Source of the DNA: a virus
Taxonomy: Duplodnaviria; Heunggongvirae; Uroviricota; Caudoviricetes
DNA: 24,154 nt
IMG/VR virus record: IMGVR_UViG_2537562172_000007
Strand: one strand, 5' to 3'
Shown: positions 3,307 through 24,154 of the stretch, in pieces
Position numbering within the stretch: the first letter of the stretch is position 1
How the letters are laid out: every line of letters begins with the position of its first letter
Position numbers and translations under genes: made by a program
The notes under the pieces: model-generated
Told to the model about the DNA's origin: nothing
The model's input: only the letters and a program-made list of their open reading frames with translations
Database searches by the model: none

Positions 3307-3882
3307 CTACGGCAGTGCTGGCCATTCAATATCCGGTGCAGTTGATGTATCAACACGGTTCAGCAACACCCGATACTTTTTCCAGGCTTCCAGCAACAAG
3401 GTTTCTTCCTCCGTTGCGATCTCCAGATCCACAGCATCCTGAAGCGGCGCTATATGCTCACTGGCTATCTGCATCAGGCTGTTTTTTGTTTCTTCCGCCT
3501 CCCGGATCCGGAACAGTTTTTCTGCTTCCGTATCCTTCACCCAGGCTGTGCCGTTCCACTTCTGATATTCCCCTCCCGGCGATAACCAGGTGACATTTTC
3601 CGGTAACGGACCGAGTTCAGAAATAAATAACGCGTCGCCGGAAGCCACGTCATAAACCGTTTTACCCCGATGATCTTCAACGAGATGCCACGATGCCTCA
3701 TCACTGTTGAAAACAGCCACGAAGCCTGCCGGAATATCTGGCGGTGCAATATCGGTACTGTTTGCTGGCAGACCTGTATGAGGCGGAATATATGCGTCAC
3801 CTTCACCAATAAATTCATTAGTTCCGGCCAGCAGATTATAAATTTTTATGGTCCGTGGTTGTTCACTCATTCTGAATGCCAT
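3307..3882 (-). CDS. tfaQ: tail fibre assembly protein
   Basis: 191-aa ORF; start ATG overlaps stop of the upstream stf fragment (TAATG); recalled Tfa family sequence. Confidence 0.85.
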
Positions 3883-8031: not shown

Positions 8032-8238
8032 CTTCATTTTCACTTTTTTAAATCCAACGACAGACGGCTGGCATTTAAGTATTGTGAAATATTATCAAAT
8101 GTAATCATCATTGATTTACAAAAGATACATTTTGCCCCGAAAGGATTCATGTCAGAAACATCAAAAGATGATGTTCTATACTGGGAACCATGACAACACG
8201 GGCATCTAAAGTGAATATGGTTTGTAATATTGTCTACC

Positions 8239-8451
8239 TCAAAGCGCCACTACATGAACAGCGGCAGGACCTTTAGGTCCGTTCTCAATACCAAATTCAA
8301 CTTCCTGATTCTCAGTTAATGTTTTGAAATCGTTGCTCTGAATTGCTGAGAAATGGACAAACACATCTTTGCTGCCATCTTTCGGCGTGATGAAACCAAA
8401 ACCTTTTTCAGGGTTAAACCATTTCACTAAACCAGTCATTTTGTTAGACAT
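8239..8451 (-). CDS. cspI: CspA-family cold shock protein
   Basis: 70 aa with cold-shock domain motifs KGFGFI and VFVHF; sequence consistent with recalled CspI. Confidence 0.9.
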
Positions 8452-8813
8452 AATTATTACCTTTTGAAGAAATTAGCCCTTGGGCAGAATGGTCCGAAAA
8501 AAAATATCAGAGAGAAAAACCAACAAGGAAATCTCAAGAGGTACAAATAATAAAATTATAACAATGACTGCTTCAGATAAATTTGTAACAAACCAGAACA
8601 CCATTAACGCATGATTAACCACCCATAGCAAGGATTACTTTTGTAAAGAAAAACACAGCAATGAAAGAATAGCTTTATTTATTAATAAAACGTGTCATTC
8701 TGATTAAGACCTTTTATCTTACCCTTAAGATTTCAGGAATTTTGGCTCATGGAAGAGTCCTTTTTATTTAAATTTTACATTCCGCGATGTAAATGTTCCG
8801 ATTTAATATTACC

Positions 8814-9837
<1,024 letters not shown>

Positions 9838-9841
<4 letters not shown>

Positions 9842-10149
9842 AGATATTTATGATGAGGACGCTCGTGCTTATTGGCAGGATTTTCAATCTTAAAGGAGTA
9901 CTGATGCTGCAGATAAGACTCAACTTTTTCTGACAATTTTTCTGCTACTTCCAGGAAGACTTGCCGGACGCTCCTTCTGGCTGCTGCCTCATAAAACTCC
10001 AGCGCAGCTCCTTCAACACGGTCCATGGCGACATCCAGGTCAAAAATTTCACCGTCAAAGCGTTCTTTGTCCTGTAAGGCTACAGTTACCGTAACTTTAT
10101 TCTCAAAATTACGGACTCCTTTCACAACCAGTTCATAGTCTTGAGTCAT
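9838..10149 (-). CDS. ydfR: DUF1327-like prophage protein
   Basis: 103-aa ORF between holin and endolysin, as recalled for Qin. Confidence 0.7.
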
Positions 10150-10153
10150 TGGA

Positions 10154-10369
10154 TTACTCTCCTCTCGCAGCCTTACGCCTGTCTTCTTTAATCTTGAAAT
10201 AAAGATTTGTCAGATACGTCAGCAGGCCAAAAACCAGGCTACCCAGCACACCGATTGCAGCCCACTGTGACGGAGTTACTTTATCGAGTAACTGCAATGC
10301 CCAGAAACCAGCATTACCCGCCGATGTGCCATAGGCAACACCTGTTGTTAACTTATCCATTGATTTCAT
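10154..10369 (-). CDS. essQ: class II holin (phage 21 S-like pinholin) with dual-start motif
   Basis: ATG at 10369 gives 71 aa starting MKSMDK (Met1-Lys2-Ser3-Met4 dual start as in S21); two TM segments; the ORF track's longer 96-aa start is unlikely. Confidence 0.85.
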
Positions 10370-10588
10370 ATCCTCACCCCGATGTACACGGATGGTGCAA
10401 TATGTTTGAAAAGATCGGAGTCTACGGGGTAGTTTTGACAGCACACGTTGTTCTCAACGGCGCTAAAAAAACATACACATTAAAAATGTGGGTAATTATT
10501 TTGAAAGAAAGTCATATATAAAATAATAATACGAGAAATGTTTTCATATTTAGTGTACTGTATACGGCCATTTATACAGGAAAAGCCT

Positions 10589-10759
10589 ATGTCAGAACGT
10601 AAAAACTCAAAATCACGCCGTAATTATCTCGTTAAATGTTCCTGCCCAAACTGCACCCAAGAGTCAGAACACAGTTTTTCAAGAGTACAAAAAGGTGCCC
10701 TTTTGATCTGCCCTCATTGCAACAAAGTATTCCAGACAAATCTTAAAGCTGTAGCCTGA
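10589..10759 (+). CDS. small zinc-ribbon protein (CSCPNC...CPHC), 56 aa
   Basis: ORF 10538-10759; internal ATG at 10589 has AGGAAAAG upstream; two CxxC pairs; antisense to the late operon. Confidence 0.45.
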   Translation: MSERKNSKSRRNYLVKCSCPNCTQESEHSFSRVQKGALLICPHCNKVFQTNLKAVA

Positions 10760-10814
10760 TTGATTTTATTAGTAACAAGTATTTTTTATATTTTAATAAT
10801 ATATTTAAAGCAGA

Positions 10815-10838
10815 TAATAAAAAACCCGCCTGAGCGGG
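10815..10838 (-). terminator. rho-independent terminator downstream of cspB (possibly bidirectional)
   Basis: Minus strand: CCCGC-TCAG-GCGGG followed by TTTTTTATTAT. Confidence 0.6.
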
Positions 10839-11122
10839 TTTGAGATTGTGGTGCTTTTTGTGGGAGTCATCCACTTACGCACTTTGTTTTGCCATGCCAG
10901 CAGTTAGCTTCTGCTGTAAAACTATTCATGCAGCAAACCTGCACTTCACCACAATGGTTAGCATACTTTTCCTGATTAAGATTTTGCCAAATATGCTAGC
11001 CATTGTTTCATGTATTGGACCTCCTTACTTTTTATTAAAGAGATCCAATATTCACTACTCTGTCCGTATCTCTACTCAGGCATCAGCCTTCTTCGTTATC
11101 GTATACAGACGAGCGATGAATT

Positions 11123-11338
11123 TTAATCAGTAATGATGACATTTGCTGCTGCAGGACCTTTAGCACCACTCTCTATAGAGAAGGTAACCTTTTGACCTTC
11201 AAATAAGGTTCGATAATTATCATTCTGAATCGCAGAAAAATGCACAAACACATCTTTACTACCATCAACAGGAGAAATAAAGCCGAAACCTTTATCAGCG
11301 TTAAACCATTTTACTAAACCAGTCATTTTATTTGACAT
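11123..11338 (-). CDS. cspB: CspA-family cold shock protein
   Basis: 71 aa [34 protein letters not shown]...; matches recalled CspB. Confidence 0.9.
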
Positions 11339-11638
11339 TCTACATTCCTTAACTTGAGCCTTTCGGCATAAATGGTTTGCATAACAGAAACGACTTCGTA
11401 CTTAATTGGAGAGACTCAAAGAAGGAATAAGTGAATAACACCTGAAATGAGAACTGCTTTAGTAAACTACTTCGTATATCGTCTGTTCTTCAAACCGACG
11501 CAATCATTAACGCATAGTTGAACATATGAAGCAATGTTTATTTTAGACATCCAGCCATCTTCAACCCCATCAAAAAACTATAGCTTTCTTCAGGAACGTG
11601 TGTATAGTGCGCCAAGTTATCAGTATTAAGGAATTTTT

Positions 11639-11851
11639 TTGTCCCGTAAAATGACAGGAATTGTCAAAACCTTTGACGGCAAAAGCGGCAAGGGTCTTAT
11701 CACCCCATCCGATGGTCGTATCGATGTCCAGCTTCATGTTTCAGCGCTCAATCTCCGCGATGCAGAAGAAATTACCACCGGATTACGCGTGGAATTTTGC
11801 CGGATAAATGGTCTGCGTGGCCCTTCAGCTGCCAATGTTTACCTTTCATGA
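11639..11851 (+). CDS. cspF: CspA-family cold shock protein paralogue
   Basis: 70 aa [37 protein letters not shown]...; divergent from cspB. Confidence 0.9.
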
Positions 11852-12136
11852 GCTATATTAAAGCTTTAATTTCAGGCCCCATCGGATCACACATGGAGAG
11901 TTTTTATGAATAACCCCGTCTGTCTTGATGACTGGTTGATTGGCTTTAAAAGCTTATGCTGTACTTTGGCCGTAATAGCTCTGCTAATAATATAATAAGC
12001 AGACTCATTGTGTTTAGGGACATTGTACTGGAAGAAAACATTTTAAACATCAGGCAAATAACCAAGTCACCAGCTAAATAATAAGTTAACAGACATGAGT
12101 CCCGGGATGAGATTCAACATTACCATTGCCCCATTT

Positions 12137-12163
12137 AAAGCACAAAACCCGCTCATCAGCGGG
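12137..12163 (-). terminator. tR'-like intrinsic terminator downstream of the late promoter
   Basis: Minus strand: CCCGCT-GATG-AGCGGG followed by TTTTGTGCTTT. Confidence 0.6.
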
Positions 12164-12212
12164 TTTTCTACTTTTTCTTAACGTCGGGTATACAAAGCCC
12201 ATCGTTGAAAAA

Positions 12213-12241
12213 ATTTTATCCATATTTTTTGAAAAATGCAA
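12213..12241 (-). promoter_or_regulatory. pR'-like late promoter (-35 TTGCAT, 17-bp spacer, -10 TAAAAT)
   Basis: Near-consensus sigma-70 hexamers on the minus strand about 35 bp downstream of the quuQ stop and about 50 bp upstream of the terminator hairpin. Confidence 0.5.
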
Positions 12242-12272
12242 ACATCATGTCGCCATCTTCAGCAAAAATCAT

Positions 12273-13025
12273 TTATCTCGTCACCTTCCTCAATTGCGCT
12301 TCCGCGTATGCTTCTTCCTGCCAGCACTTTGTTACCAGTTTACCAATGACGTCCGCATACCCCTTATACCACTGATAATCGGTCAGGTCTGGTACCAGCT
12401 TCTGGACATGACGTCGTGCCAGCGTGGTCGGTAAACGACTAAACCGGTTTCCATTACAACGCCCACAAATCTTATATACCGGTACGCCATGAAACCGGGT
12501 TCTTTTTTCATCCAGAACAATCCCTTTACCCTTACACCCTCTGCACGCTGTGCTGGCTTCGCCCTTACCATGGCAATGCTGACATAGTTCCTTCACCCAT
12601 TCTTCCTTGATTACAGATTCCCCGCGTCTGTAGTGTTTCACCACTTCGCGCAATACATTATAAAATCCCGTACCTGAACAATGCTCACAGCGAGCCTTAC
12701 TTGCCGCAGACCTGGAGTAATCAGCAAAGGCAAAACTCACGAGGTAAGGAATAATCTGTAACCGGATTTCTTCACTCAATTTGTTCAATGTCGGGTTATC
12801 CAGTGCCATCGCGTAATTTAGCAGGCCTTCAATCGCAAACTGAGGGTCCTGAACACCAACTTTTGCCAGAAATAAGGCCAACCCAAGTGGTGCTTTCGAC
12901 TGCACCATCCCCTGCGCTGCCATTACATCCGTAATTGTTAAACAACCGGTGCCTGTCGCTGGAGCGTCATCGCTCAATTTTGGAGATTTTGGGGAGTAAT
13001 ATTTTGGTAAGGCTTCAAGGTTCAT
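12273..13025 (-). CDS. quuQ: late-gene antiterminator Q
   Basis: ATG at 13025 gives 250 aa (MNLEALPKYY...); Cys/His-rich zinc-binding region; the ORF track start at 13055 is a TTG. Confidence 0.85.
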   Translation of the reverse strand: MNLEALPKYYSPKSPKLSDDAPATGTGCLTITDVMAAQGMVQSKAPLGLALFLAKVGVQDPQFAIEGLLNYAMALDNPTLNKLSEEIRLQIIPYLVSFAFADYSRSAASKARCEHCSGTGFYNVLREVVKHYRRGESVIKEEWVKELCQHCHGKGEASTACRGCKGKGIVLDEKRTRFHGVPVYKICGRCNGNRFSRLPTTLARRHVQKLVPDLTDYQWYKGYADVIGKLVTKCWQEEAYAEAQLRKVTR

Positions 13026-13038
13026 GCTCGTTCTCCAC

Positions 13039-14088
13039 TTACGCCAGTACGCCAATTGCCAGCGCGCGATCGATAAAACGAAATATCAGCTCCAGTTGGG
13101 AGCCATACTTATCTTCAAATGCCACTGTATCCGTATGCAGCTCGTTGTGATGCTTTCTGCACAAAGGCAACACAAAGAGATCATGTGCTTTTGTTCCCAT
13201 TCCGCCCTGCCCGTGACCAATCAGATGATGCGGATCGTCGGCTGGCATACCGCAGCAAGCACACGGCTGTGTCTTAACCCAACGTGTGTATTTCTCCTTA
13301 ACCCAGCGGCGACGTTTAGGCAGCTTCATGAAAGATTCCGGAGACTCTGGATCAACGGTGATGCTTACCACCGTCTTTTCCTGTGGTGATTTTTGTTGCT
13401 GGTGGGCGTAAGGCAACGGTGCAAGATTTTTTGTGCGTTGTTTCAATATGCTGGTGGCGGTCTGCTCTCCCGGTACGATGTCGCTTTCGCGGTACACCGA
13501 GCAGATTTTTTCCGCTGGTAATCCCAGCGAACGACGCGATACAGCCTCAGGTAGTGCATCCACCACCTGATTGCAGACCGCCCACCAGGATAATTCAGCC
13601 AAAGATAATTCCCGCTCCTGCGTACCGCTTATTGCGTGACGGATGACGTCAATCACCCATGCTGTCAGATTTTGTTGAGCAAGCAGCTCCAGTGATTCCG
13701 ATGTCTGGTCACGCAGTTGGTTGTCGCAGTGCCAGCACAACACCATTGCGCCGGTACCATAACGGTGAATGACTGTTTCAGTGTGATGGTAATCGCCATT
13801 AGGCCACTGGCAGGATGTAACATGACGTAATAGCCAGTCGGACAATGCGCCAACGCCGCCAGCAGCACGAATCACCCGTTCGTTACTAAAAAACGGCAGC
13901 AATGTTTTGTCTTCCGCCAGCGGCTGGCGAACGGCAGGAACGACTCCGGATGGCAGATTACGCATGCTTTTTGGTTCCGGTTCCACCAGCACTCGAGGAT
14001 TATGAAATATCTGTATGGATTCACGGCCCGGCTTAAGGACCACCAGCCCAAGCTCAGGCACCAGAACAGGTCTAAGTAATACCCGCAC
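13039..14088 (-). CDS. ydfU: DUF968-like prophage protein with C-terminal HNH-like motif
   Basis: GTG start at 14088 preceded by TGGAGGTAAC; 349 aa; C-terminal motif CACCG...HHLIGHGQGG...PLCRKHHNELH fits the HNH pattern. Confidence 0.75.
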   Translation of the reverse strand: MRVLLRPVLVPELGLVVLKPGRESIQIFHNPRVLVEPEPKSMRNLPSGVVPAVRQPLAEDKTLLPFFSNERVIRAAGGVGALSDWLLRHVTSCQWPNGDYHHTETVIHRYGTGAMVLCWHCDNQLRDQTSESLELLAQQNLTAWVIDVIRHAISGTQERELSLAELSWWAVCNQVVDALPEAVSRRSLGLPAEKICSVYRESDIVPGEQTATSILKQRTKNLAPLPYAHQQQKSPQEKTVVSITVDPESPESFMKLPKRRRWVKEKYTRWVKTQPCACCGMPADDPHHLIGHGQGGMGTKAHDLFVLPLCRKHHNELHTDTVAFEDKYGSQLELIFRFIDRALAIGVLA

Positions 14089-14089
14089 G

Positions 14090-14368
14090 TTACCTCCAGA
14101 TCCGTTGCTGGAAAGTGCGGGACGCACGTGGTGGGCGTTCGGAATAAGGCAGCCTGACAGAGATTATCCAGTGCCGATAGTCGAGACTGAGAGCTTTCTT
14201 AACCTCGACCCCGCGCCTGCGGTAAGAATGAATCAGCCATTCGGCCTGTTCTGCAGTGCATGGAGGGTGCTGGAACCATTCAGACTTGAATGCGTGAGAA
14301 TACCGCCCGTGCGTGCAGGCAAGAACGGGCGAATTATCAGAATTGTAATATTTTGCGTTGCGTGCCAT
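14090..14368 (-). CDS. hypothetical 92-aa protein translationally coupled to ydfU
   Basis: ATG at 14368 with GGAG 9 nt upstream; stop TAA is 1 nt before the ydfU GTG and embedded in its Shine-Dalgarno sequence. Confidence 0.45.
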   Translation of the reverse strand: MARNAKYYNSDNSPVLACTHGRYSHAFKSEWFQHPPCTAEQAEWLIHSYRRRGVEVKKALSLDYRHWIISVRLPYSERPPRASRTFQQRIWR

Positions 14369-14434
14369 CGGTTTTCTCCGGTGGCACGGTGTTACTCAGC
14401 GGGAGTTCAGCCCCGCGCAAGATTGTAGATGAGT

Positions 14435-16608: not shown

Positions 16609-18457
16609 AGTTAACATTACAAGATATAAGTAATGGACGCACTCCCAATTAGTCTATTTAAATCGCCACGAGTTTAACTGACAACCCATGATCAATTATG
16701 AATTGCAACTATTTCTGTAGTCACTTTTGTGGGGACAGTCCACAAAACTGCCAACATCCGCTTCTTGCTCTTAGCGGACATTAGCATAGGCTATTTACCA
16801 TAACGCCTCATTACGCGCACCGCCCAGACTGACTCAGCGCGTTTCTGGCATATCCCCGGTAAAACAAGTAACAAACCACCCGAAAATGAACACCAGAAAC
16901 GCGACTTAAGAATCTACCCTATGAATGGATATGCACTCAACCGAATCGATCTTGGTTTCAATCTTTTTTATCGGGATCAGGCTTCTTTTTAGGTAACTTC
17001 GGGGGCTTAACTTGCTGATGACTTTGCGTTCGGCGCGTAAGCCAGGGATGGTCAGCTTTAGGTTTAACATAGTATTTTGAGCGTAAATCAATACGGGCAT
17101 TATCCACTCGTTCATGGACACTCTTTTCATCATCCAGTGGTATAGGCTCCGGGCCATCAACATACTTTTCCCAGCCCAGCGCTTTCCCGTCATACAGAAC
17201 GTTAATTTCACCGTCAAAGTTCTCGCATACAGTAACAACCGAATGCCTAAGTCGATATCCCCGGCCCTCACTGCGTACCTGAAACGCACTGCTTTTGTAC
17301 TGGAAAGTGAGATTTTTAGACAGAACGCGCTTCGCCTGTAGGCTGAAGATATAACCCAGTTCCTCTTCAGAATGGTGCACATCAAGATGAGCATTATCAG
17401 TAGTACGAGGCGACGTAGCGAACCGGTTGTTATAGGCTTCAATAAAGGTCGGCAACCATGCATTTGCTGTTTCAATATCACTGATATTCTGAAGCCGCAT
17501 TTCTTTGACCAGCCTGTCCTGTAGTGTCTGATTGGCGCGCTCTACCCGCCCTTTTGCCTGCGGGCTGTTGGCATGGATTGGCTCGATGCCCAGTGTCTTT
17601 ATCGCACGAGTGAACTGGGTCAGCTCACCTTCCCGCTCTGGGTTATTTACCCTGAATATACTGTGTCTATCAGAGTAGAGAGCGAGCGGTACGCCATGAT
17701 CATTAAGGTAACCCCGGAGGGTTTCCATGTAAGCCCGGGTTGTTTCAGCAGGCACAAAACGCAACGCCATCAACGCACTGGTGGCATCATCAATGAAAAC
17801 GATCAGTGTACATCTGGGGCCTCGATTTTCAAACCAGTCATGAGGTGAGCCATCAATCTGGATCAGTTCACCGTAAGATGGTCGTCGCATGCGGCGTTGA
17901 TATATACGGGCAATTTTACGACGGCGTTCACGCCATAACCCCTCTTCTATCATCCACTTTCTGAGAGTTTCAACGGATAAAGATAAACCGTGTATCTCGC
18001 GCAATTTTTCGCACGCAAACGTAGGTCCAAAATCAGCGTAACGGCCTTTGAGGAGTGAAATTACTGTTGCTCTGAATTCAGTAGAAAAGGAATTATTAGG
18101 ACGCTTTCCACGTCGGTGGGAAACCAGACCAGAAGGCCCTTCATTTCTATACCGTTGCACCAGACGTTTAACCTGCCGAATAGAAATGCCAATGCGTGCC
18201 GCAGCTTGTTCCTGAATAATCTGAAGTCGGTGGAGTTCCTTATGACTCATCGTAACAGTCTCTTTGATCATGAAAAATCCCCCAGAGAATTGTCTGGGGA
18301 CATTTTAGAATGGTTCAAAGGGGACATTACAGCTTGGTGTTAACAATAGCCTGCTTCTCCGTGCCTTTCGGCACGTAAGAGGCTAACCTACATGTGTCTA
18401 GCATGAAATTGGCCTCAGATTAATGTTAAGCGTCTTGCAGGACGCGTAATGTTAACT
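16609..18457 (-). mobile_element. insertion sequence carrying one rve-type DDE transposase (family unassigned, IS481/ISNCY/IS21-like); boundaries tentative
   Basis: Tentative ends from a perfect 12-bp inverted repeat: AGTTAACATTAC at 16609-16620 and GTAATGTTAACT at 18446-18457; no target-site duplication recognised. Confidence 0.35.
16958..18271 (-). CDS. DDE transposase, retroviral-integrase (rve) fold with N-terminal HTH
   Basis: 437 aa; HTH region (IGISIRQVKRLVQRY), catalytic-core motifs LIQIDGS, ALYSDRHSIF and SPQAKGRVERAN; GGGGGA Shine-Dalgarno upstream of the ATG. Confidence 0.85.
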   Translation of the reverse strand: MIKETVTMSHKELHRLQIIQEQAAARIGISIRQVKRLVQRYRNEGPSGLVSHRRGKRPNNSFSTEFRATVISLLKGRYADFGPTFACEKLREIHGLSLSVETLRKWMIEEGLWRERRRKIARIYQRRMRRPSYGELIQIDGSPHDWFENRGPRCTLIVFIDDATSALMALRFVPAETTRAYMETLRGYLNDHGVPLALYSDRHSIFRVNNPEREGELTQFTRAIKTLGIEPIHANSPQAKGRVERANQTLQDRLVKEMRLQNISDIETANAWLPTFIEAYNNRFATSPRTTDNAHLDVHHSEEELGYIFSLQAKRVLSKNLTFQYKSSAFQVRSEGRGYRLRHSVVTVCENFDGEINVLYDGKALGWEKYVDGPEPIPLDDEKSVHERVDNARIDLRSKYYVKPKADHPWLTRRTQSHQQVKPPKLPKKKPDPDKKD

Positions 18458-18605
18458 GGGGCTTTTCTCTATCTGCCGTTGGTGTCCATGCCCGAGGCAG
18501 ATAGCCTCAAGCACCCGCAGTCATTCTACTTAACTAAGATTTCCCCGCAAACCGTTTTTGTCCAGCACAGTAAATATCCAACTAAACCAATGGAGTTCGC
18601 TGTAT

Positions 18606-18785
18606 TTACCGCCAGTATTCAATGCACATGACCGCCATGAACACCCCTAAAAAAAGGGCATTTATATATCCAAATATTAATATCAAAACATCAACTTTTT
18701 CCATATACCTTGCTGTGAAGATGATGGGCATACATGATGCGAACAACCAGAACGCAACAAACAAAAACTGCAATGCGTTTTTCAT
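18606..18785 (-). CDS. small two-TM membrane protein, 59 aa
   Basis: ATG at 18785 preceded by AGGAGG with 4-nt spacer; MKNALQFLFVAFWLFASCMPIIFTARYMEKVDVLILIFGYINALFLGVFMAVMCIEYWR has two hydrophobic helices. Confidence 0.4.
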   Translation of the reverse strand: MKNALQFLFVAFWLFASCMPIIFTARYMEKVDVLILIFGYINALFLGVFMAVMCIEYWR

Positions 18786-19564
18786 TATTCCTCCTACAAT
18801 CAATGTGCAATTACATTTAAACACACCTCAATTTGGCCGGACATATAAATATCTAAACCAGAAAAAATCACTTACATAGCGTTACAAACTCTTTAGTCTA
18901 AAGGTTCATCGTAAAACATTCCCCATACTTATCAGTCCGTTCCGCGCCAGGTAGCTCATTGCCTTATCTGGCAACCTGTAATCAGGTTTCCGCTTTTTCA
19001 GTTGGCTGGTCGTTTAACCGACATAGTTAATCCATTAATCTAGTTGCCGGATGTTGGTGGATTTTCGCGTTTTAGTTGTTCATAAAAGTGCACAGCTTTA
19101 ACCAGTTCTTCTGATGTAACTGGGACTGGTGAGGCAGTGAATAAGGCCTGAATTTGATAGTTCGGCCTGTCGTTACAATCCTCTTTTTTCGGTACATATT
19201 TCCAGTCACCAGACCACTACTTCCCCTGAAAGTCCGTAACGCCTTTTTTCACGTAGCGATATCGCCATGCCACTGGTTTTGCTTGCCCCGCCGTTTCATG
19301 CCCTTCCTGATAATTAATCTCGCTCATTCATCGCCCCACTCATCACAATATGCTTCGACCGGAGTTTTTCCCGCTTCATAGTCATCACGCTAGGATTCGA
19401 CATCAGCAGCACTTCCACCGCGTAACTCACCATAGTCCATTAATAGTTCATCCCGCTCTTCAAAACTGATGTTATATTTAGCTGAACAAAAATCAGCCAC
19501 TTTGTTCTTCCTCATCGTCTTTTATTTCGTGGTATGAGTAATTGCAGTAGTTAAAGAAAATTTC

Positions 19565-19675
19565 TTATGCTCCGTCATGAATTTCCTCAGGTGTTGCGTC
19601 ATCGTCCACTTCGAATACATCCTCAAAATCTCCACCAGCTATTCCCGTTTCAATAATAATTTTGAACTTTCGCAT
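19565..19675 (-). CDS. hypothetical acidic 36-aa protein (MRKFKIIIETGIAGGDFEDVFEVDDDATPEEIHDGA)
   Basis: Manual translation; a GCCGCCC-GAAA-GGGCGG hairpin sits directly upstream of the ATG with AGGAGG further 5'; very tentative. Confidence 0.2.
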   Translation of the reverse strand: MRKFKIIIETGIAGGDFEDVFEVDDDATPEEIHDGA

Positions 19676-19937
19676 TTCACTACCGCCCTTTCGGGCGGCC
19701 TCCTGATGTTCTGAGGGTGCAGAAATCCATCCGGTTAAGGATTAAATTTTATTTACAGAACTGAATTTAATTATTCAGATATACGTATCTGTAGCCTTAC
19801 GAATCTACTCACTGGATGCCTCTTTCATAAAAATAATCCAGTGGGTTTTATCGTTTTTTCCCTGTTCGTTGACAGATAACAGGTTTTCTGTCTGTCAGTG
19901 CCAGAATCTGGCTTACCGGTATTTGCGTTTCATTCCA

Positions 19938-20294
19938 TTAAAAAATCAGAACGCCGTGCGGCCTCAACACCCGAAAGGCTTCTTTAAATCTCTGTCGCGA
20001 ATCATCACGCCAGGCATCTTTATTCAGCCGTCCATATTTCTTTCCCATCCAGGCGTTATCACCAACACTCTCAAGATACGGAGGGTCTAATACAACCATC
20101 GAAAAAGATGCGTCTGCAAATGATAATGCACGAAAATCTGCGATAATGTCAGGGCTGATAATCAAGCGTCTCCCATTGCGTAATGTGTATCCTTCTTTTC
20201 TGATATCGCTGAATATCGCCCGTTCGTCAGACTTATCGAACCAGAACATGCGGCTGCCACAGCACATATCAAGAATGGTTGCCGGTGCACTCAC
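19938..20294 (-). pseudogene. N6-adenine/N4-cytosine (Dam-like) DNA methyltransferase, N-terminal fragment
   Basis: 118-aa ORF with SAM-binding motif I (ILDMCCGS) and catalytic motif IV (DPPY); ends before any target-recognition or C-terminal region; no MTase-like continuation in any frame downstream. Confidence 0.6.
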
Positions 20295-20557
20295 TGCGCC
20301 ACGTCCTGAAAATTACCCTGATAGAAAGCCAGTATGCGCTGCATAACTTCGCTCTTCCGGCACTCGCGACAGATTATGTTTAGGCGACTGTCGTAGCGAC
20401 GTATTTCTCCGTCAGGTGATGACCAGATAAGGTCCGGATCAACCACAGCAGGTTTCTTCACCTTTGCCCTCGAGAGTTTTTTGCGGGCGTTTTGCCAGTC
20501 CTTACGCGCCTGTTCAGAGGGGAATAACCCGTATCCGGAGCTTAAGTTGCACGCCAT
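20291..20557 (-). CDS. hypothetical protein overlapping the methyltransferase fragment start (GTGA overlap)
   Basis: 88-aa ORF with no Shine-Dalgarno at its ATG; an internal GTG at 20461 with GAGGG upstream would give 56 aa. Confidence 0.3.
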   Translation of the reverse strand: MACNLSSGYGLFPSEQARKDWQNARKKLSRAKVKKPAVVDPDLIWSSPDGEIRRYDSRLNIICRECRKSEVMQRILAFYQGNFQDVAQ

Positions 20558-22508
20558 TGGGTGGGTTAAGCATAAATGTATTCCTGGTGCTAAATGGCCC
20601 GAAATTCAGGCAGAGATGCGCATCTGGAAAAAACGTCGCGAAGGTGAACGCAAGGAAACCGGAAAATACACGTCTGTTGTTGATCTCGCCCGCGCCAGAG
20701 CCAATCAACAGTACACTGAAAATTCAACAGGAAAAATCAGCCCGGTCATTGCTGCCATTCATCGCGAATACAAGCAGACATGGAAAACACTGGATGACGA
20801 ACTGGCCTACGCTCTCTGGCCTAGTGATGTGGATGCCGGAAACATTGACGGCAGCATCCATCGCTGGGCAAAAAAAGAAGTTATCGACAACGACCGCGAA
20901 GACTGGAAGCGTATCTCGGCATCAATGCGCAAACAGCCTGATGCCCTTCGCTACGACCGCCAAACTATTTTTGGCCTTGTCCGTGAGCGTCCGATCGACA
21001 TTCACAAAGATCCCGTAGCACTGAACAAATATATCTGCGAATACCTGACGACAAAGGGCGTGTTTGAGAATGAAGAAACAGACCTGGGCACTGTTGATGT
21101 TCTCCAGTCATCAGAAACACAAACTGATGCAGTGGAAACTGAGGTATCTGATATCCCAAAAAATGAAACCGCGCCGGAAGCTGAACCATCTGTAGAGCGT
21201 GAGGGGCCGTTCTATTTCCTCTTCGCAGATAAGGACGGAGAAAAATACGGTCGCGCAAACAAACTCTCTGGTCTGGATAAGGCACTGGCTGCTGGCGCCA
21301 CTGAAATCACAAAAGAAGAATATTTTGCCCGAAAAAATGGCACATACACGGGCTTACCGCAAAATGTAGATACCGCTGAAGATTCAGAACAACCAGAGCC
21401 GATAAAAGTTACCGCTGACGAAGTAAACAAAATTATGCAGGCAGCCAATATCAGCCAGCCTGACGCCGATAAGTTGCTTGCTGCATCACGTGGTGAATTT
21501 GTTGAAGGGATTAGTGACCCGAATGATCCGAAATGGGTTAAGGGGCTCCAGACCCGCGATTCTGTGAACCAGAACCAGCATGAATCGGAACGGAACTACC
21601 AAAAAGCGGAACAAAACAGTCCAAATGCGTTACAAAACGAGCCAGAAACGAAACAGCCTGAACCAGTAGCGCAACAGGAAGTGGAAAAAGTCTGCACCGC
21701 CTGCGGTCAGACCGGCGGCGGCAACTGCCCTGATTGTGGCGCGGTGATGGGCGACGCAACATACCAAGAAACATTCGATGAAGAGTATCAGGTTGAAGTT
21801 CAGGAAGATGATCCGGAGGAAATGGAAGGCGCTGAACATCCACACAAGGAGAACACTGGCGGCAATCAGCATCACAATAGCGATAATGAAACTGGCGAGA
21901 CGGCAGATCACCCAATTAAGGTGAACGGTCATCACGAAATCACATCCACCAGCAGGACGTGTGACCATCTAATGATCGACCTTGAAACCATGGGAAAAAA
22001 TCCTGATGCCCCGATCATCTCAATAGGTGCAATATTTTTCGATCCGCAAACCGGAGATATGGGACCGGAATTTAGTAAGACTATCGATCTGGAAACTGCT
22101 GGCGGAGTCATTGATCGGGACACCATTAAATGGTGGCTTAAGCAATCACGCGAAGCGCAATCTGCCATTATGACCGATGAAATCCCGTTAGATGATGCAC
22201 TGTTACAATTGCGAGAATTTATCGACGAAAACTCCGGTGAATTTTTTGTTCAGGTTTGGGGAAATGGAGCCAACTTCGACAACACGATTTTGCGCCGTTC
22301 ATACGAACGGCAGGGGATCCCCTGCCCGTGGCGTTACTACAACGATCGCGATGTACGCACAATCGTTGAGCTGGGGAAAGCCATAGACTTCGATGCCAGA
22401 ACGGCTATTCCATTCGAAGGTGAGCGCCATAATGCACTTGATGACGCCCGTTACCAGGCAAAAATACGTTTCAGTTATCTGGCAAAAACTGATCCCGAGT
22501 CAGGCTGA
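20481..22508 (+). CDS. phage exonuclease with C-terminal DnaQ-like (DEDDh) 3'-5' exonuclease domain
   Basis: Exo motifs MIDLETMG, WGNGANFDNTIL and HNALDDARYQ in the last ~190 aa; acidic low-complexity linker with CTACGQTGGGNCPDCG zinc ribbon; start uncertain (TTG at 20481 or ATG at 20616). Confidence 0.8.
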   Translation: MRAFCQSLRACSEGNNPYPELKLHAIGWVKHKCIPGAKWPEIQAEMRIWKKRREGERKETGKYTSVVDLARARANQQYTENSTGKISPVIAAIHREYKQTWKTLDDELAYALWPSDVDAGNIDGSIHRWAKKEVIDNDREDWKRISASMRKQPDALRYDRQTIFGLVRERPIDIHKDPVALNKYICEYLTTKGVFENEETDLGTVDVLQSSETQTDAVETEVSDIPKNETAPEAEPSVEREGPFYFLFADKDGEKYGRANKLSGLDKALAAGATEITKEEYFARKNGTYTGLPQNVDTAEDSEQPEPIKVTADEVNKIMQAANISQPDADKLLAASRGEFVEGISDPNDPKWVKGLQTRDSVNQNQHESERNYQKAEQNSPNALQNEPETKQPEPVAQQEVEKVCTACGQTGGGNCPDCGAVMGDATYQETFDEEYQVEVQEDDPEEMEGAEHPHKENTGGNQHHNSDNETGETADHPIKVNGHHEITSTSRTCDHLMIDLETMGKNPDAPIISIGAIFFDPQTGDMGPEFSKTIDLETAGGVIDRDTIKWWLKQSREAQSAIMTDEIPLDDALLQLREFIDENSGEFFVQVWGNGANFDNTILRRSYERQGIPCPWRYYNDRDVRTIVELGKAIDFDARTAIPFEGERHNALDDARYQAKIRFSYLAKTDPESG

Positions 22509-22587
22509 TTCTTAATGTTCAACTGTCGCCGGTTGTGACTGGTATTCTGCAACCGGCGCTCGTCTGATGTAAGAGATAAAGAAATCG

Positions 22588-22839
22588 ATGAGCGAAGTAA
22601 TCATGATTGTCTCTCCCGGCAAATGGGTATCCGAAGAGCAGTTAATTGCGCTGAAAGGAATAAAAAAAGGTACGTTAAAAAAGGCCCGGGAAAAATCGTT
22701 TATGGAAGGAAGGGAATATAAGCATGTCGCTCATGACGGTATGCCATGGGATAACAGTCCATGCTTTTACAACCTGGAAGAAATTGATCGCTGGATTGAG
22801 CGCCAGGCATCAGCGAGACCAAGACGTCATCTTACTTGA
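22588..22839 (+). CDS. excisionase-like small DNA-binding protein
   Basis: 83-aa basic protein immediately upstream of the integrase, same strand; no strong sequence match recalled. Confidence 0.55.
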   Translation: MSEVIMIVSPGKWVSEEQLIALKGIKKGTLKKAREKSFMEGREYKHVAHDGMPWDNSPCFYNLEEIDRWIERQASARPRRHLT

Positions 22840-22858
22840 CTAAAAGCCACACTAACTA

Positions 22859-24154
22859 ATGAGAGAAGTTGAAATGAAATATCCGACAGGCGTGGAAAAC
22901 CATGGAGGGAAATTACGTATCTGGTTTGTTTATAAAGACGTAAGAGTCAGGGAAAATCTGGGGGTTCCTGACACAGCAAAAAACAGGCGCGTTGCAGGTG
23001 AACTACGCTCCTCTGTTTGTTACGCAATAAAAACTGGTGTTTTCGACTATGCAAAACAGTTTCCCTCCTCACGCAATCTGGAAAAATTTGGTGAGGCCCG
23101 ACAAGATTTAACCATAAAAGAACTGGCTGAAAAATTTCTGGCACTGAAAGAAACTGAAGTCGCCAAAACATCACTCAACACATACCGTGCCGTCATCAAA
23201 AATATCCTGAGCATAATCGGTGAAAAAAATCTTGCCTCATCGATTAATAAAGAAAAATTACTGGAGGTTCGTAAAGAGTTACTGACTGGATACCAGATCC
23301 CCAAAAGTAACTATATTGTTACACAACCAGGGAGATCGGCTGTAACTGTAAATAATTACATGACAAATCTTAACGCCGTGTTCCAGTTTGGTGTTGATAA
23401 CGGTTACCTGGCAGATAATCCGTTTAAGGGGATCTCGCCATTAAAGGAATCAAGAACCATTCCGGATCCTCTTTCGCGGGAAGAATTTATCCGTCTTATC
23501 GATGCGTGCAGAAATCAGCAAGCAAAAAATTTATGGTGTGTTTCTGTTTATACTGGAGTTCGCCCTGGTGAGCTGTGTGCACTTGGATGGGAGGACATAG
23601 ATCTGAAAAATGGAACAATGATGATCAGGAGAAATTTAGCAAAAGACCGTTTCACGGTACCAAAAACACAGGCGGGAACCAATCGGGTCATTCATCTTAT
23701 TAAGCCAGCAATCGACGCTCTCCGGAGTCAGATGACATTAACGAGACTGAGCAAAGAGCATATCATTGATGTTCACCTCAGAGAGTATGGCAGAACAGAA
23801 AAACAAAAATGCACCTTTGTTTTTCAACCTGAAGTGTCAGCGAGAGTAAAAAATTATGGTGACCATTTTACCGTTGACTCAATAAGGCAGATGTGGGACG
23901 CAGCGATAAAACGTGCCGGACTCCGCCATCGAAAATCATATCAGTCGAGACATACTTATGCCTGCTGGTCGCTGACAGCTGGTGCTAACCCGGCATTTAT
24001 AGCAAACCAGATGGGCCATGCAGATGCGCAAATGGTATTTCAGGTATACGGAAAATGGATGTCTGAAAACAATAATGCACAGGTAGCTTTGTTAAATACA
24101 CAGTTAAGCGAGTTTGCCCCAACCATGCCCCATAACGAAGCAATGAAAAATTAA
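22859..24154 (+). CDS. tyrosine integrase (phage integrase family)
   Basis: C-terminal catalytic residues in context (RPGELCAL, HTYACW, Y in YGKWM); N-terminal arm-binding-like region; ATG at 22874 has the better Shine-Dalgarno (GAGAAG); stop at the window end. Confidence 0.9.
   Translation: MREVEMKYPTGVENHGGKLRIWFVYKDVRVRENLGVPDTAKNRRVAGELRSSVCYAIKTGVFDYAKQFPSSRNLEKFGEARQDLTIKELAEKFLALKETEVAKTSLNTYRAVIKNILSIIGEKNLASSINKEKLLEVRKELLTGYQIPKSNYIVTQPGRSAVTVNNYMTNLNAVFQFGVDNGYLADNPFKGISPLKESRTIPDPLSREEFIRLIDACRNQQAKNLWCVSVYTGVRPGELCALGWEDIDLKNGTMMIRRNLAKDRFTVPKTQAGTNRVIHLIKPAIDALRSQMTLTRLSKEHIIDVHLREYGRTEKQKCTFVFQPEVSARVKNYGDHFTVDSIRQMWDAAIKRAGLRHRKSYQSRHTYACWSLTAGANPAFIANQMGHADAQMVFQVYGKWMSENNNAQVALLNTQLSEFAPTMPHNEAMKN

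Follow-up and report, generated by a model that had tools for sequence, protein, structure and literature searches.

A Probable Q-Dependent Late Control Module (pR'-qut-tR') Downstream of quuQ in a Qin-Type Prophage

Locus and Gene Order

The stretch of viral DNA analysed here (IMG/VR record IMGVR_UViG_2537562172_000007; 24,154 nucleotides, hereafter the window) carries, around the genes quuQ to rzpQ, the late region of the Qin prophage. Between window positions 11000 and 13100, it is 100% identical to MG1655, as well as to many further strains. The RefSeq annotation at this match runs ydfU, ydfT (quuQ), an ORF of 29 aa, cspF, cspB, ynfU, essD/essQ, ydfR, rrrQ, and rzpQ. The K-12-like part of the window extends to about position 17200, as judged by gene order only, identity having been compared for 11000–13100. 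Over its full 24 kb, it is strains such as O141:H4 P13-6, and not MG1655, that the window matches. P13-6-type strains harbor an IS fragment, pseudogenes, an excisionase, and an integrase in place of the Qin immunity region, and the prophage of the window is heavily degraded, having no dicA/dicC-type immunity and early region. The features discussed below are collected in Table 1.

Table 1. Features of the late region, in window coordinates, with the basis on which each was assigned
Feature	Position	Strand	Basis
quuQ (ydfT), late antiterminator of the Q-lambda family, 250 aa	12273..13025	-	Pfam, alignment with lambda Q, PDB matches, RefSeq "antitermination protein"
quuQ stop codon TAA	12275-12273	-	sequence
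-35 hexamer TTGCAT	12241-12236	-	sequence; 31 nt past quuQ stop
17-bp spacer, candidate Q-binding element	12219..12235	-	near-invariant across variants; likeness to phi80
-10 hexamer TAAAAT	12218-12213	-	hexamer scan
Transcription start, +1 A	12206	-	dRNA-seq TSS; 6 bases intervene after -10
-10-like sigma70 pause-inducing element AACGAT + GGG, +1 to +9	12198..12206	-	identical to lambda pR' +1 to +9
Predicted 5'-terminal stem-loop of pR' RNA	12180..12206	-	RNAfold: AACG/CGUU + UGGG/CCCG
tR' intrinsic terminator	12134..12174	-	hairpin 12167-12144, U tract, mapped 3' end ~12134
Same hairpin as terminator of cspF-ynfS transcripts	12144..12173	+	plus-strand scan, 3' peak 12172, fold
ynfS, small ORF of 29 aa, convergent with pR'	11906..11995	+	RefSeq CDS, translation; name from PMC10687069 table
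cspF, convergent with pR'	11639..11851	+	Pfam CSD, RefSeq
cspB leader (cspA-type thermoregulator) + cspB, co-directional with pR'	11107..11499	-	Rfam RF01766, 158.8 bits
cspB CDS	11123-11338	-	Pfam CSD
Second intrinsic terminator, between cspB and essQ	10822..10841	-	scan: 8-bp stem, 5 GC pairs, tail TTTATTATCT
ynfU, zinc-ribbon ORF, convergent with pR'	10589..10759	+	Pfam YnfU PF23499, RefSeq
Lysis cassette essQ-ydfR-rrrQ-rzpQ, expected target of late transcription	8814..10369	-	Pfam holin, DUF1327, lysozyme matches; RefSeq

The product of quuQ matches the Pfam family Antiterm (PF03589, E = 3.6e-54) and, more weakly, DnaJ_CXXCXGXG. Its alignment with lambda Q covers the full length at 33% identity, with an insertion of 48 aa between the zinc-binding cysteine pairs, and it also matches the solved Q-lambda structures PDB 7UBM, 7UBN, and 4MO1. 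Judged by these matches, QuuQ is a member of the Q-lambda family. The gene is intact, and its product does not differ from the Q of phage PhiR42_1 (100% identity). The holin, DUF1327, lysozyme, and Rz-like genes lie downstream and share the minus strand with the late promoter pR'. An ORF of 51 aa on the same strand (12086–12241), designated "hypothetical" in PhiR42_1, was rejected as a gene because its start lies upstream of the mapped transcription start and because it reads through the terminator.

Promoter, Start Site, and Pause Element

On the minus strand past quuQ, the sequence adopts the geometry TTGCAT-17-TAAAAT-6-AACGATGGG, the last element beginning at A12206. The -35 hexamer matches the consensus at three to four of its six positions. 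It is identical to the annotated -35 of phi80 pR' and unchanged in eight of nine diverged variants; in an alternative register, TTTGCA would be followed by an 18-bp spacer. The variants of the -10 hexamer, TAAGAT and TAGGAT, retain A2 and T6. A hexamer scan finds nine sites this good in 3 kb, compared with 6.1 ± 2.2 in shuffled sequences. A sequence-only reading of this DNA had announced a near-consensus promoter downstream of quuQ on the minus strand. The promoter is there, with its two hexamers and a mapped start, but the label "near-consensus" was dropped, given the partial -35 match and promoter strength that shows no surplus over chance when taken from the hexamers alone. What renders Qin pR' convincing is its context, namely the unique pause element and its distance from the -10, the fold of the RNA, the conservation of the module, and the transcript ends mapped in K-12.

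The string AACGATGGG occurs once in the window (0.20 copies expected) and follows the -10 at the spacing known from lambda pR' (TAAATT-TGACTC-AACGATGGG), namely 6 nt. The pause element is kept in most of the 52 Q-lambda-family leaders that we compared. By analogy with lambda, pausing would be expected near +16/+17, corresponding to positions 12191/12190. A -35-like TTGACT abuts the pause element in lambda and P22, whereas Qin has TTTTTC instead. The HK225, SI8, and phi80 types likewise do without TTGACT at this place, which makes it a peculiarity of lambda and P22 and not a family-wide feature.

In the Q-lambda family, Q engagement is defined by two cis elements, a Q-binding element (QBE) placed within the -35/-10 spacer and, in the initial transcribed region, a pause element resembling a -10 (PMC4914094). 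The 17-bp spacer of Qin, TTTTCAAAAAATATGGA, is almost unchanged among QuuQ-type modules and resembles the phi80 spacer TTCGCGGAAAAACTGGA, which GenBank annotates for Q binding. The Qin spacer is thus a candidate QBE for QuuQ. Qin pR' is an active promoter with a defined start, and its sequence points to the sigma70 type. Our literature search found no publication on the Qin pR' promoter.

Transcript Ends Mapped in K-12

Published transcript ends offer a more direct view of the module. They were determined by the TRS method in E. coli K-12, grown in LB (PMC10687069), and were converted to our coordinates by subtracting 1,630,216 from the genome position (ydfT = 1642489–1643241). On the minus strand, a peak of 3' termini spans 1642344–1642358, with the dominant terminus at 1642350 (window 12134) and a flanking sequence that ends in ...GAAAACCCGCUGAUGAGCGGGUUUUGUGCUUUAAAU (PMC10687069). 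On the plus strand, a 3' terminus at 1642388 (window 12172), attributed to ynfS, falls at the tR' hairpin (PMC10687069). Supplementary Data 4 of the same study lists a TSS at 1642422 (window 12206), taken from the dRNA-seq of Thomason 2015, and ydfT figures there as an outlier in three of three libraries. Read starts per nucleotide amount to 0.004–0.008 in the ydfT CDS versus 1.1–2.2 in the "ydfT 3'UTR" (PMC10687069).

The coincidence of the mapped start with the predicted +1 A, together with the mapped ends, indicates that pR' is constitutive, that its transcript stops at the hairpin, and that the hairpin is active on both strands. The pR'-tR' RNA is thus a constitutive transcript of ~73 nt, present in K-12, where the sequence is identical, at ~200 times the level of the quuQ mRNA. 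A start near 12190, as put forward in the sequence-only reading, is not what the dRNA-seq data display, their TSS lying 16 nt away. Positions 12190/12191 coincide by chance with +16/+17, the expected position of a lambda-type pause.

The Qin locus has no entries among the listed rows of a Term-seq (PMC7815308), a SMRT-Cappable-seq (PMC6131387), and an RNET-seq study of sigma70 pausing (PMC7876045). A genomic SELEX study of sigma70 reports a site between essQ and cspB, while ydfT and cspF go unmentioned in its text.

A Terminator Hairpin Used on Both Strands

An intrinsic terminator following the promoter had also been predicted from the sequence, and this prediction was borne out by the hairpin, the U tract, and the 3' end near 12134. 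The tR' hairpin consists of a 10-bp stem and a GAUG loop, AAAACCCGCU/GAUG/AGCGGGUUUU, spanning 12167–12144 and followed by GUGCUUUAAA. The whole 73-nt RNA folds with -30.4 kcal/mol (RNAfold, z = -6.1). Our terminator scan flagged the hairpin on the plus strand only; both strands of the segment fold, and 3' ends are mapped for both, at 12134 on the minus and at 12172 on the plus strand. The hairpin is a bidirectional intrinsic terminator, with an A tract on one side and a U tract on the other.

The plus-strand scan result and the plus-strand 3' end at 12172, along with hexamers at chance level, could also be read as marks of a mere terminator of cspF-ynfS transcripts, the promoter-like site on the minus strand being fortuitous. 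We consider this highly improbable. It is contradicted by the mapped TSS and 3' end of the minus strand, and the pause element is the same as that of lambda. Moreover, SfV, mEp460, and Stx2c phages, which carry no cspF, have kept both hairpin and promoter, with a sense U tract that is even stronger.

The two lineages differ in the flanks of the hairpin. The group carrying cspF combines an A-rich segment upstream of the hairpin, GAAAAAGUAGAAAA, with a short sense U tract (UUUUGUGCUUU). SfV-type modules have 7 U in the sense tract and lack an A-rich upstream segment, so that the terminator looks unidirectional. This pattern, together with the mapped plus-strand 3' end, suggests across these two lineages that the Qin hairpin has been adapted to also end convergent cspF-ynfS transcription.

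A Probable Covarying 5' Stem in pR' Leaders

The 5' end of the pR' RNA is predicted to form a stem-loop, in which 12206–12203 pair with 12183–12180 and 12201–12198 with 12188–12185. A similar potential is widespread among the 52 unique Q-lambda-family leaders. In 44 of them, the exact reverse complement of the leader's own +1 to +4 tetramer is found within +13 to +34, while composition shuffles average 4.4 such leaders and never exceed 12 in 2000 trials. The partner changes along with the tetramer. AACG at +1 to +4 is matched by CGTT in 33 of 36 leaders, and AACA by TGTT in all seven, with CGTT present in just one of these. For AATG, the partner CATT occurs in three of six leaders, and the single AATA leader has TATT. 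Complements of tetramers taken from +3, +4, +5, and +6 are rare (4, 2, 2, and 0 leaders, respectively). When the first 32 nt are folded, the minimum-energy structure displays a 5'-terminal helix in 28 of the 52 leaders, and the invariant GGG of the leaders often pairs with variable partners.

Stems at the 5' end protect E. coli mRNAs. By extension, the leader complement most likely reflects a stem-loop at the very 5' end, with a stabilising effect on pR' transcripts. A DNA-level inverted repeat would be a possible alternative. A search of the more recent Q literature found no mention of a 5' stem in the leader.

Conservation, Module Boundary, and Cargo

Within the phage collection, SfV, mEp460, Ayreon, 15 Stx2c-converting phages, and others share ~88% DNA identity with the Qin module. 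The identity starts inside Q and breaks off exactly where the terminator stem ends. The segment from -35 to +14 and the terminator stem are near-invariant in two alignments, with a variable terminator loop (TGATGA, CGCTGA, CACTGA, CCCTGA). Strain 1517k carries a different hairpin with a UUCG loop in the same place. The records of SfV and Ayreon annotate a terminator at the tR' position. A 126-nt query representing the module is present in 2422 of 5426 complete E. coli genomes (45%), with no annotation beneath the match.

Beyond the terminator, the cargo varies. In Qin, PhiR42_1, and 2H10, it comprises antisense ynfS-cspF and cspB; the live phage 2H10 and phage PhiR42_1 display the same order of Q, pR', tR', cspF (antisense), cspB, and holin. 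SfV and mEp460 carry small ORFs and a methylase at this place, and the Stx2c phages small ORFs, a methylase, and in addition tRNA genes.

More distant modules follow the same plan. A scan of species-representative genomes yielded ~50 more Q-lambda-family genes, almost all of them followed by -35 / 16–18 / -10 / 5–8 / NANNNT, in which the last element is usually AACGATGGG. Relatives of QuuQ at 64–72% identity occur in Enterobacter, Kosakonia, Mangrovibacter, and Buttiauxella, with modules of the form TTGCAA-17-TAGGAT-6-AACGATGGG and spacers reading TTC(A/G)(A/G)AAAA..TGG. The scan of viral contigs with the Q alignment returned relatives at 93–100% identity only, and the diversity described here is taken from the scan of genome contigs.

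Proposed Mechanism

Taken together, these findings make it highly probable that the element serves a Qin-type lambdoid prophage as its pR'-qut-tR' late control module. Promoter activity, the start site, both 3' ends, the family membership of QuuQ, and the conservation of the module are shown and lend this reading support. The late architecture with Q-dependent antitermination, as envisaged in the sequence-only reading, is thereby upheld, with a Q-lambda-family QuuQ, a lambda-type pause element, a mapped start and 3' end, and lysis genes on the same strand.

Such a module would operate as follows. RNA polymerase, probably with sigma70, initiates constitutively at A12206, after which region 2 of sigma70 would re-bind AACGAT at +1 to +6, by analogy with lambda, and hold the polymerase in a pause near +16/+17. 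Without Q, the polymerase would escape from the pause and terminate at the hairpin 12167–12144, yielding the ~73-nt RNA that ends near 12134, the counterpart of the lambda 6S RNA. QuuQ, if made, would bind the spacer that separates the -35 from the -10 and load onto the paused complex. Modified by Q, this complex would then resist tR' as well as the later terminator at 10841–10822. The hairpin also ends the convergent transcription of cspF-ynfS. The pause, the binding of Q, the Q-dependent readthrough, and whatever effect there may be on the csp genes are steps that we infer.

The antiterminated transcript would first cross ynfS (11995–11906) and cspF (11851–11639) in antisense and then the cspB leader and gene in sense. 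Further on, it would pass the second terminator, ynfU in antisense, and essQ-ydfR-rrrQ-rzpQ in sense. This readthrough, antisense to ynfS, cspF, and ynfU and sense for cspB and the lysis genes, is what geometry and homology would lead one to expect. The antisense orientation of cspF and of the zinc-ribbon ORF ynfU, claimed earlier, agrees with the gene order; ynfS had been overlooked.

A coupling of Csp dosage to prophage late expression, the last of the earlier proposals, is speculation. The quuQ mRNA is nearly absent in LB (K-12), and Q may never be made in the host of the window, since the dicA/dicC-type immunity and early region is lost. Two further points run counter to such coupling: cspB has its own promoter and a thermoregulated leader, and cspF-cspB is one of several alternative cargoes in the slot after tR'. 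A more elaborate version would make the Qin-type late entry a two-way switch, in which a late swap of Csp paralogues has been selected for as a phage function, as opposed to a chance outcome of the gene arrangement. In lysogens, the bidirectional hairpin that the two units share would insulate cspF-ynfS from pR'. Once Q is made, the hairpin would be overridden, cspF, ynfS, and ynfU would be silenced by convergent transcription or antisense RNA, and cspB would be delivered along with the lysis genes. We regard this switch as unlikely.

The scarcity of quuQ transcripts raises the possibility of a relic, in which only the constitutive promoter and the terminator still work, while QuuQ never reaches a useful level, so that cspF is not read in antisense and Q drives neither cspB nor the lysis genes in this host. 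The read starts in the quuQ CDS in LB fit this possibility, as do the 3' ends mapped after hokD and after rem, upstream of quuQ (PMC10687069), the heavy degradation of the prophage with its immunity and early region gone, and a separate sigma70/H-NS site reported upstream of essQ. The intact quuQ, encoding the very Q of PhiR42_1, does not look like a relic, nor do the promoter, pause element, and terminator, which are undamaged and the same as in related phages; moreover, the low quuQ signal comes from LB only. On balance, we judge a relic to be a serious possibility, though one falling somewhat short of even chances.

The Short RNA as a Possible Regulator

Lambdoid phages as a rule make a short pR'-tR' RNA, and StxS, the pR'-tR' RNA of Stx phages, is an Hfq-binding sRNA; such RNAs are perhaps common (PMC7547250). 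Hence, the 73-nt RNA of Qin might likewise act in trans, as a StxS-like regulator, and thereby provide the reason why promoter and terminator are retained in cryptic prophages. Apart from the StxS precedent (PMC7547250), its constitutive and relatively abundant expression would fit this role, as would its stable fold, in which the A-rich (ARN-like) linker AGAAAAAGUAGAAAA joins the 5' stem to a terminator ending in a U tail. In addition, cspF.ydfT.IGR appears in Hfq RIL-seq chimeras with 70 fragments. In the RIL-seq-based table, however, where the signal may stem from either strand, cspF.ydfT.IGR has an sRNA score of 0.0024 (candidate threshold 0.1), and its two partners and SIC of -0.5 are target-like. 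No Rfam family matches the 73-nt RNA, and the stretch from +15 to +39 is the least conserved one between Qin-type and SfV-type modules. The A tract, moreover, can also be explained by plus-strand termination. We consider a regulatory role unlikely. The Qin RNA and StxS are alike in being constitutive short RNAs in lysogens, by-products of antitermination control. They appear to differ in that StxS binds Hfq and regulates targets, whereas the weak, strand-ambiguous RIL-seq data argue against sRNA-like behavior of the Qin RNA.

Implications

The Qin module is canonical in kind, with its Q-lambda-type late promoter, pause site, and terminator; it is newly assignable to Qin and not new in principle. 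A K-12 transcript known only as an anomalous "ydfT 3'UTR" in genome-wide studies hereby gains a mechanistic label. The exact start, the pause element, and the bidirectional terminator are now defined for work on the Qin lysis genes, cspB/cspF, and ynfS/ynfU. As the late operons of Stx2c-converting phages are headed by the same Q-pR' module, K-12 could serve as a safe model for that type of Q. Q-driven antisense control of cspF, if true, would mean that cargo genes are wired into phage late timing, and the covarying 5' stem, provided it is new, would give a control site classically understood at the DNA level a feature at the RNA level as well.

Comparison with Known Late Modules

The closest modules are those of SfV, mEp460, Ayreon, and the Stx2c phages, with Q proteins 93–94% identical to QuuQ, a near-identical segment from -35 to +14, and the same terminator stem. 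Their cargo is nonetheless a different one: in place of cspF/cspB, small ORFs and a DNA methylase lie in the sense orientation, joined by tRNA genes in the Stx2c phages.

With lambda pR'-qut-tR', Qin shares the Q family, a promoter directly after Q, a 17-bp spacer, and 6 nt to a +1 AACGATGGG. Both give rise to a constitutive, short terminated RNA and have the lysis genes downstream. The RNA of Qin is much shorter, at ~73 nt versus 194 nt for the lambda 6S RNA, and the -35 is TTGCAT in place of TTGACT. The Qin spacer (the putative QBE) differs in sequence from its lambda counterpart, and the 48-aa insertion of QuuQ, absent from lambda Q, brings extra CxxCxGxG motifs. A further difference is the 1.7 kb of cargo, including three convergent genes, that separates tR' from the holin in Qin.

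Phi80 and P22 follow the same plan and produce short RNAs of Qin-like size, leaving the 194-nt lambda 6S RNA as the exception. According to GenBank, phi80 pR' (gp17) has a -35 of TTGCAT and a Q site in its Qin-like spacer, its terminator lying at about +47 to +75. In P22 (P-late/gene 23), the qut site covers -10 to +14, and the terminator occupies about +31 to +59. P22 shares with Qin the same bases at +1 to +8/9, whereas the pause element of phi80 reads AACGCT instead of AACGAT. The Q proteins of phi80 and P22 are just 33–37% identical to QuuQ, and neither phage has convergent genes after its terminator.

Genes transcribed against a late operon are familiar among morons, lambda bor being an example; they confer a benefit on the host from their own promoters, antisense within the late operon. 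The Qin arrangement differs from these in that the convergent genes come directly behind tR', whose hairpin doubles as their own terminator.

The 5' End of the Late Transcripts

Comparison of 52 unique pR' leaders of the Q-lambda family (loci L101-L164, L005 and L009-L014) reveals an exact complement of transcribed bases 1-4 at about +20 to +27. As many as 44 leaders carry this complement to their own first four bases, where 4.4 would be expected, and the partner covaries with the 5' tetramer (AACG/CGTT, AACA/TGTT, AATG/CATT, AATA/TATT). The leader sequences suggest a 5'-terminal stem-loop that is conserved in the late transcripts of the family. The same four bases form part of the sigma70 pause element.

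At the other end of the short pR' RNA, the alignment of pR'-tR' modules (A1) allowed only two lineages to be compared. In the cspF-carrying modules, an A-rich tract precedes the tR' hairpin and the sense U tract is shorter than in the SfV-type modules, a combination consistent with adaptation of tR' to bidirectional termination.

Further Transcripts and Features of the Window

The 3' end of cspB, mapped at genome position 1641225, falls inside a hairpin where a strong Shine-Dalgarno sequence is found together with an ATG (AAGGAGGTccaatacATG at 11010), possibly an unannotated small ORF with a sequestered ribosome site. Between cspB and essQ, a genomic SELEX study listed a site (TTTATA-16-AATAAT) of the sigma70 holoenzyme, together with H-NS; therefore, the lysis cassette may have an additional, Q-independent promoter.

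In the table that flags ydfT (PMC10687069), rem and ydfW are 3'UTR outliers as well, and their signals would represent two further constitutive short minus-strand prophage RNAs. The putative rem RNA would overlap an annotated hypothetical CDS.

The window as a whole is not MG1655; among the strains that it does match is O141:H4 P13-6. The dicA/dicC/dicF/dicB region of Qin is absent, its place being taken by an ISNCY fragment, pseudogenes, a methyltransferase, an exoribonuclease fragment, an excisionase and an integrase; hence Rfam found no DicF in the window. Among the further Rfam matches, the sok RNA lies 3.3 kb from hokD, raising the question of whether it is the remnant of a second hok/sok.

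Positions of features in the window
Feature	Position	Strand	Source
IS009	3341-3539	-	Rfam
Second cspA-type thermoregulator, upstream of cspI	8212-8597	-	Rfam
cspB-essQ interval	10370-11122		
Hairpin at cspB 3' end	11005-11045	-	
cspB 3' end	11009	-	
tR'	12134-12174	-	A1
Putative 5'-terminal stem-loop of the pR' RNA	12180-12206	-	
quuQ	12273-13025	-	
Hypothetical CDS	14090-14368		
Putative rem 3'UTR RNA	14293-14414	-	TSS 1644630, 3' end 1644509 (PMC10687069)
Putative ydfW 3'UTR RNA	16832-16904	-	TSS 1647120, 3' end 1647048 (PMC10687069)
Segment in place of the Qin dicA/dicC/dicF/dicB region	17229-24154		
sok antitoxin RNA	18345-18516	-	Rfam

QuuQ and Q Genes of Lambda Length

Loci L165-L180 carry Q genes of 621 nt, the length of lambda Q, with 33% identity to QuuQ, as for lambda Q itself. 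Oceanobacillus, Kitasatospora, Bradyrhizobium and Segatella are among the labels of their host assemblies, the contigs are mostly small, and these genes look like lambda DNA contaminating the assemblies.

Compared with lambda Q, QuuQ has a 48-aa insertion within the zinc-binding region, and the CxxCxGxG motifs it adds give a Pfam match to the DnaJ central domain (E = 1.3e-8). The Q proteins of phi80 and HK225 have this long form too, as do many Q proteins of enterobacteria.
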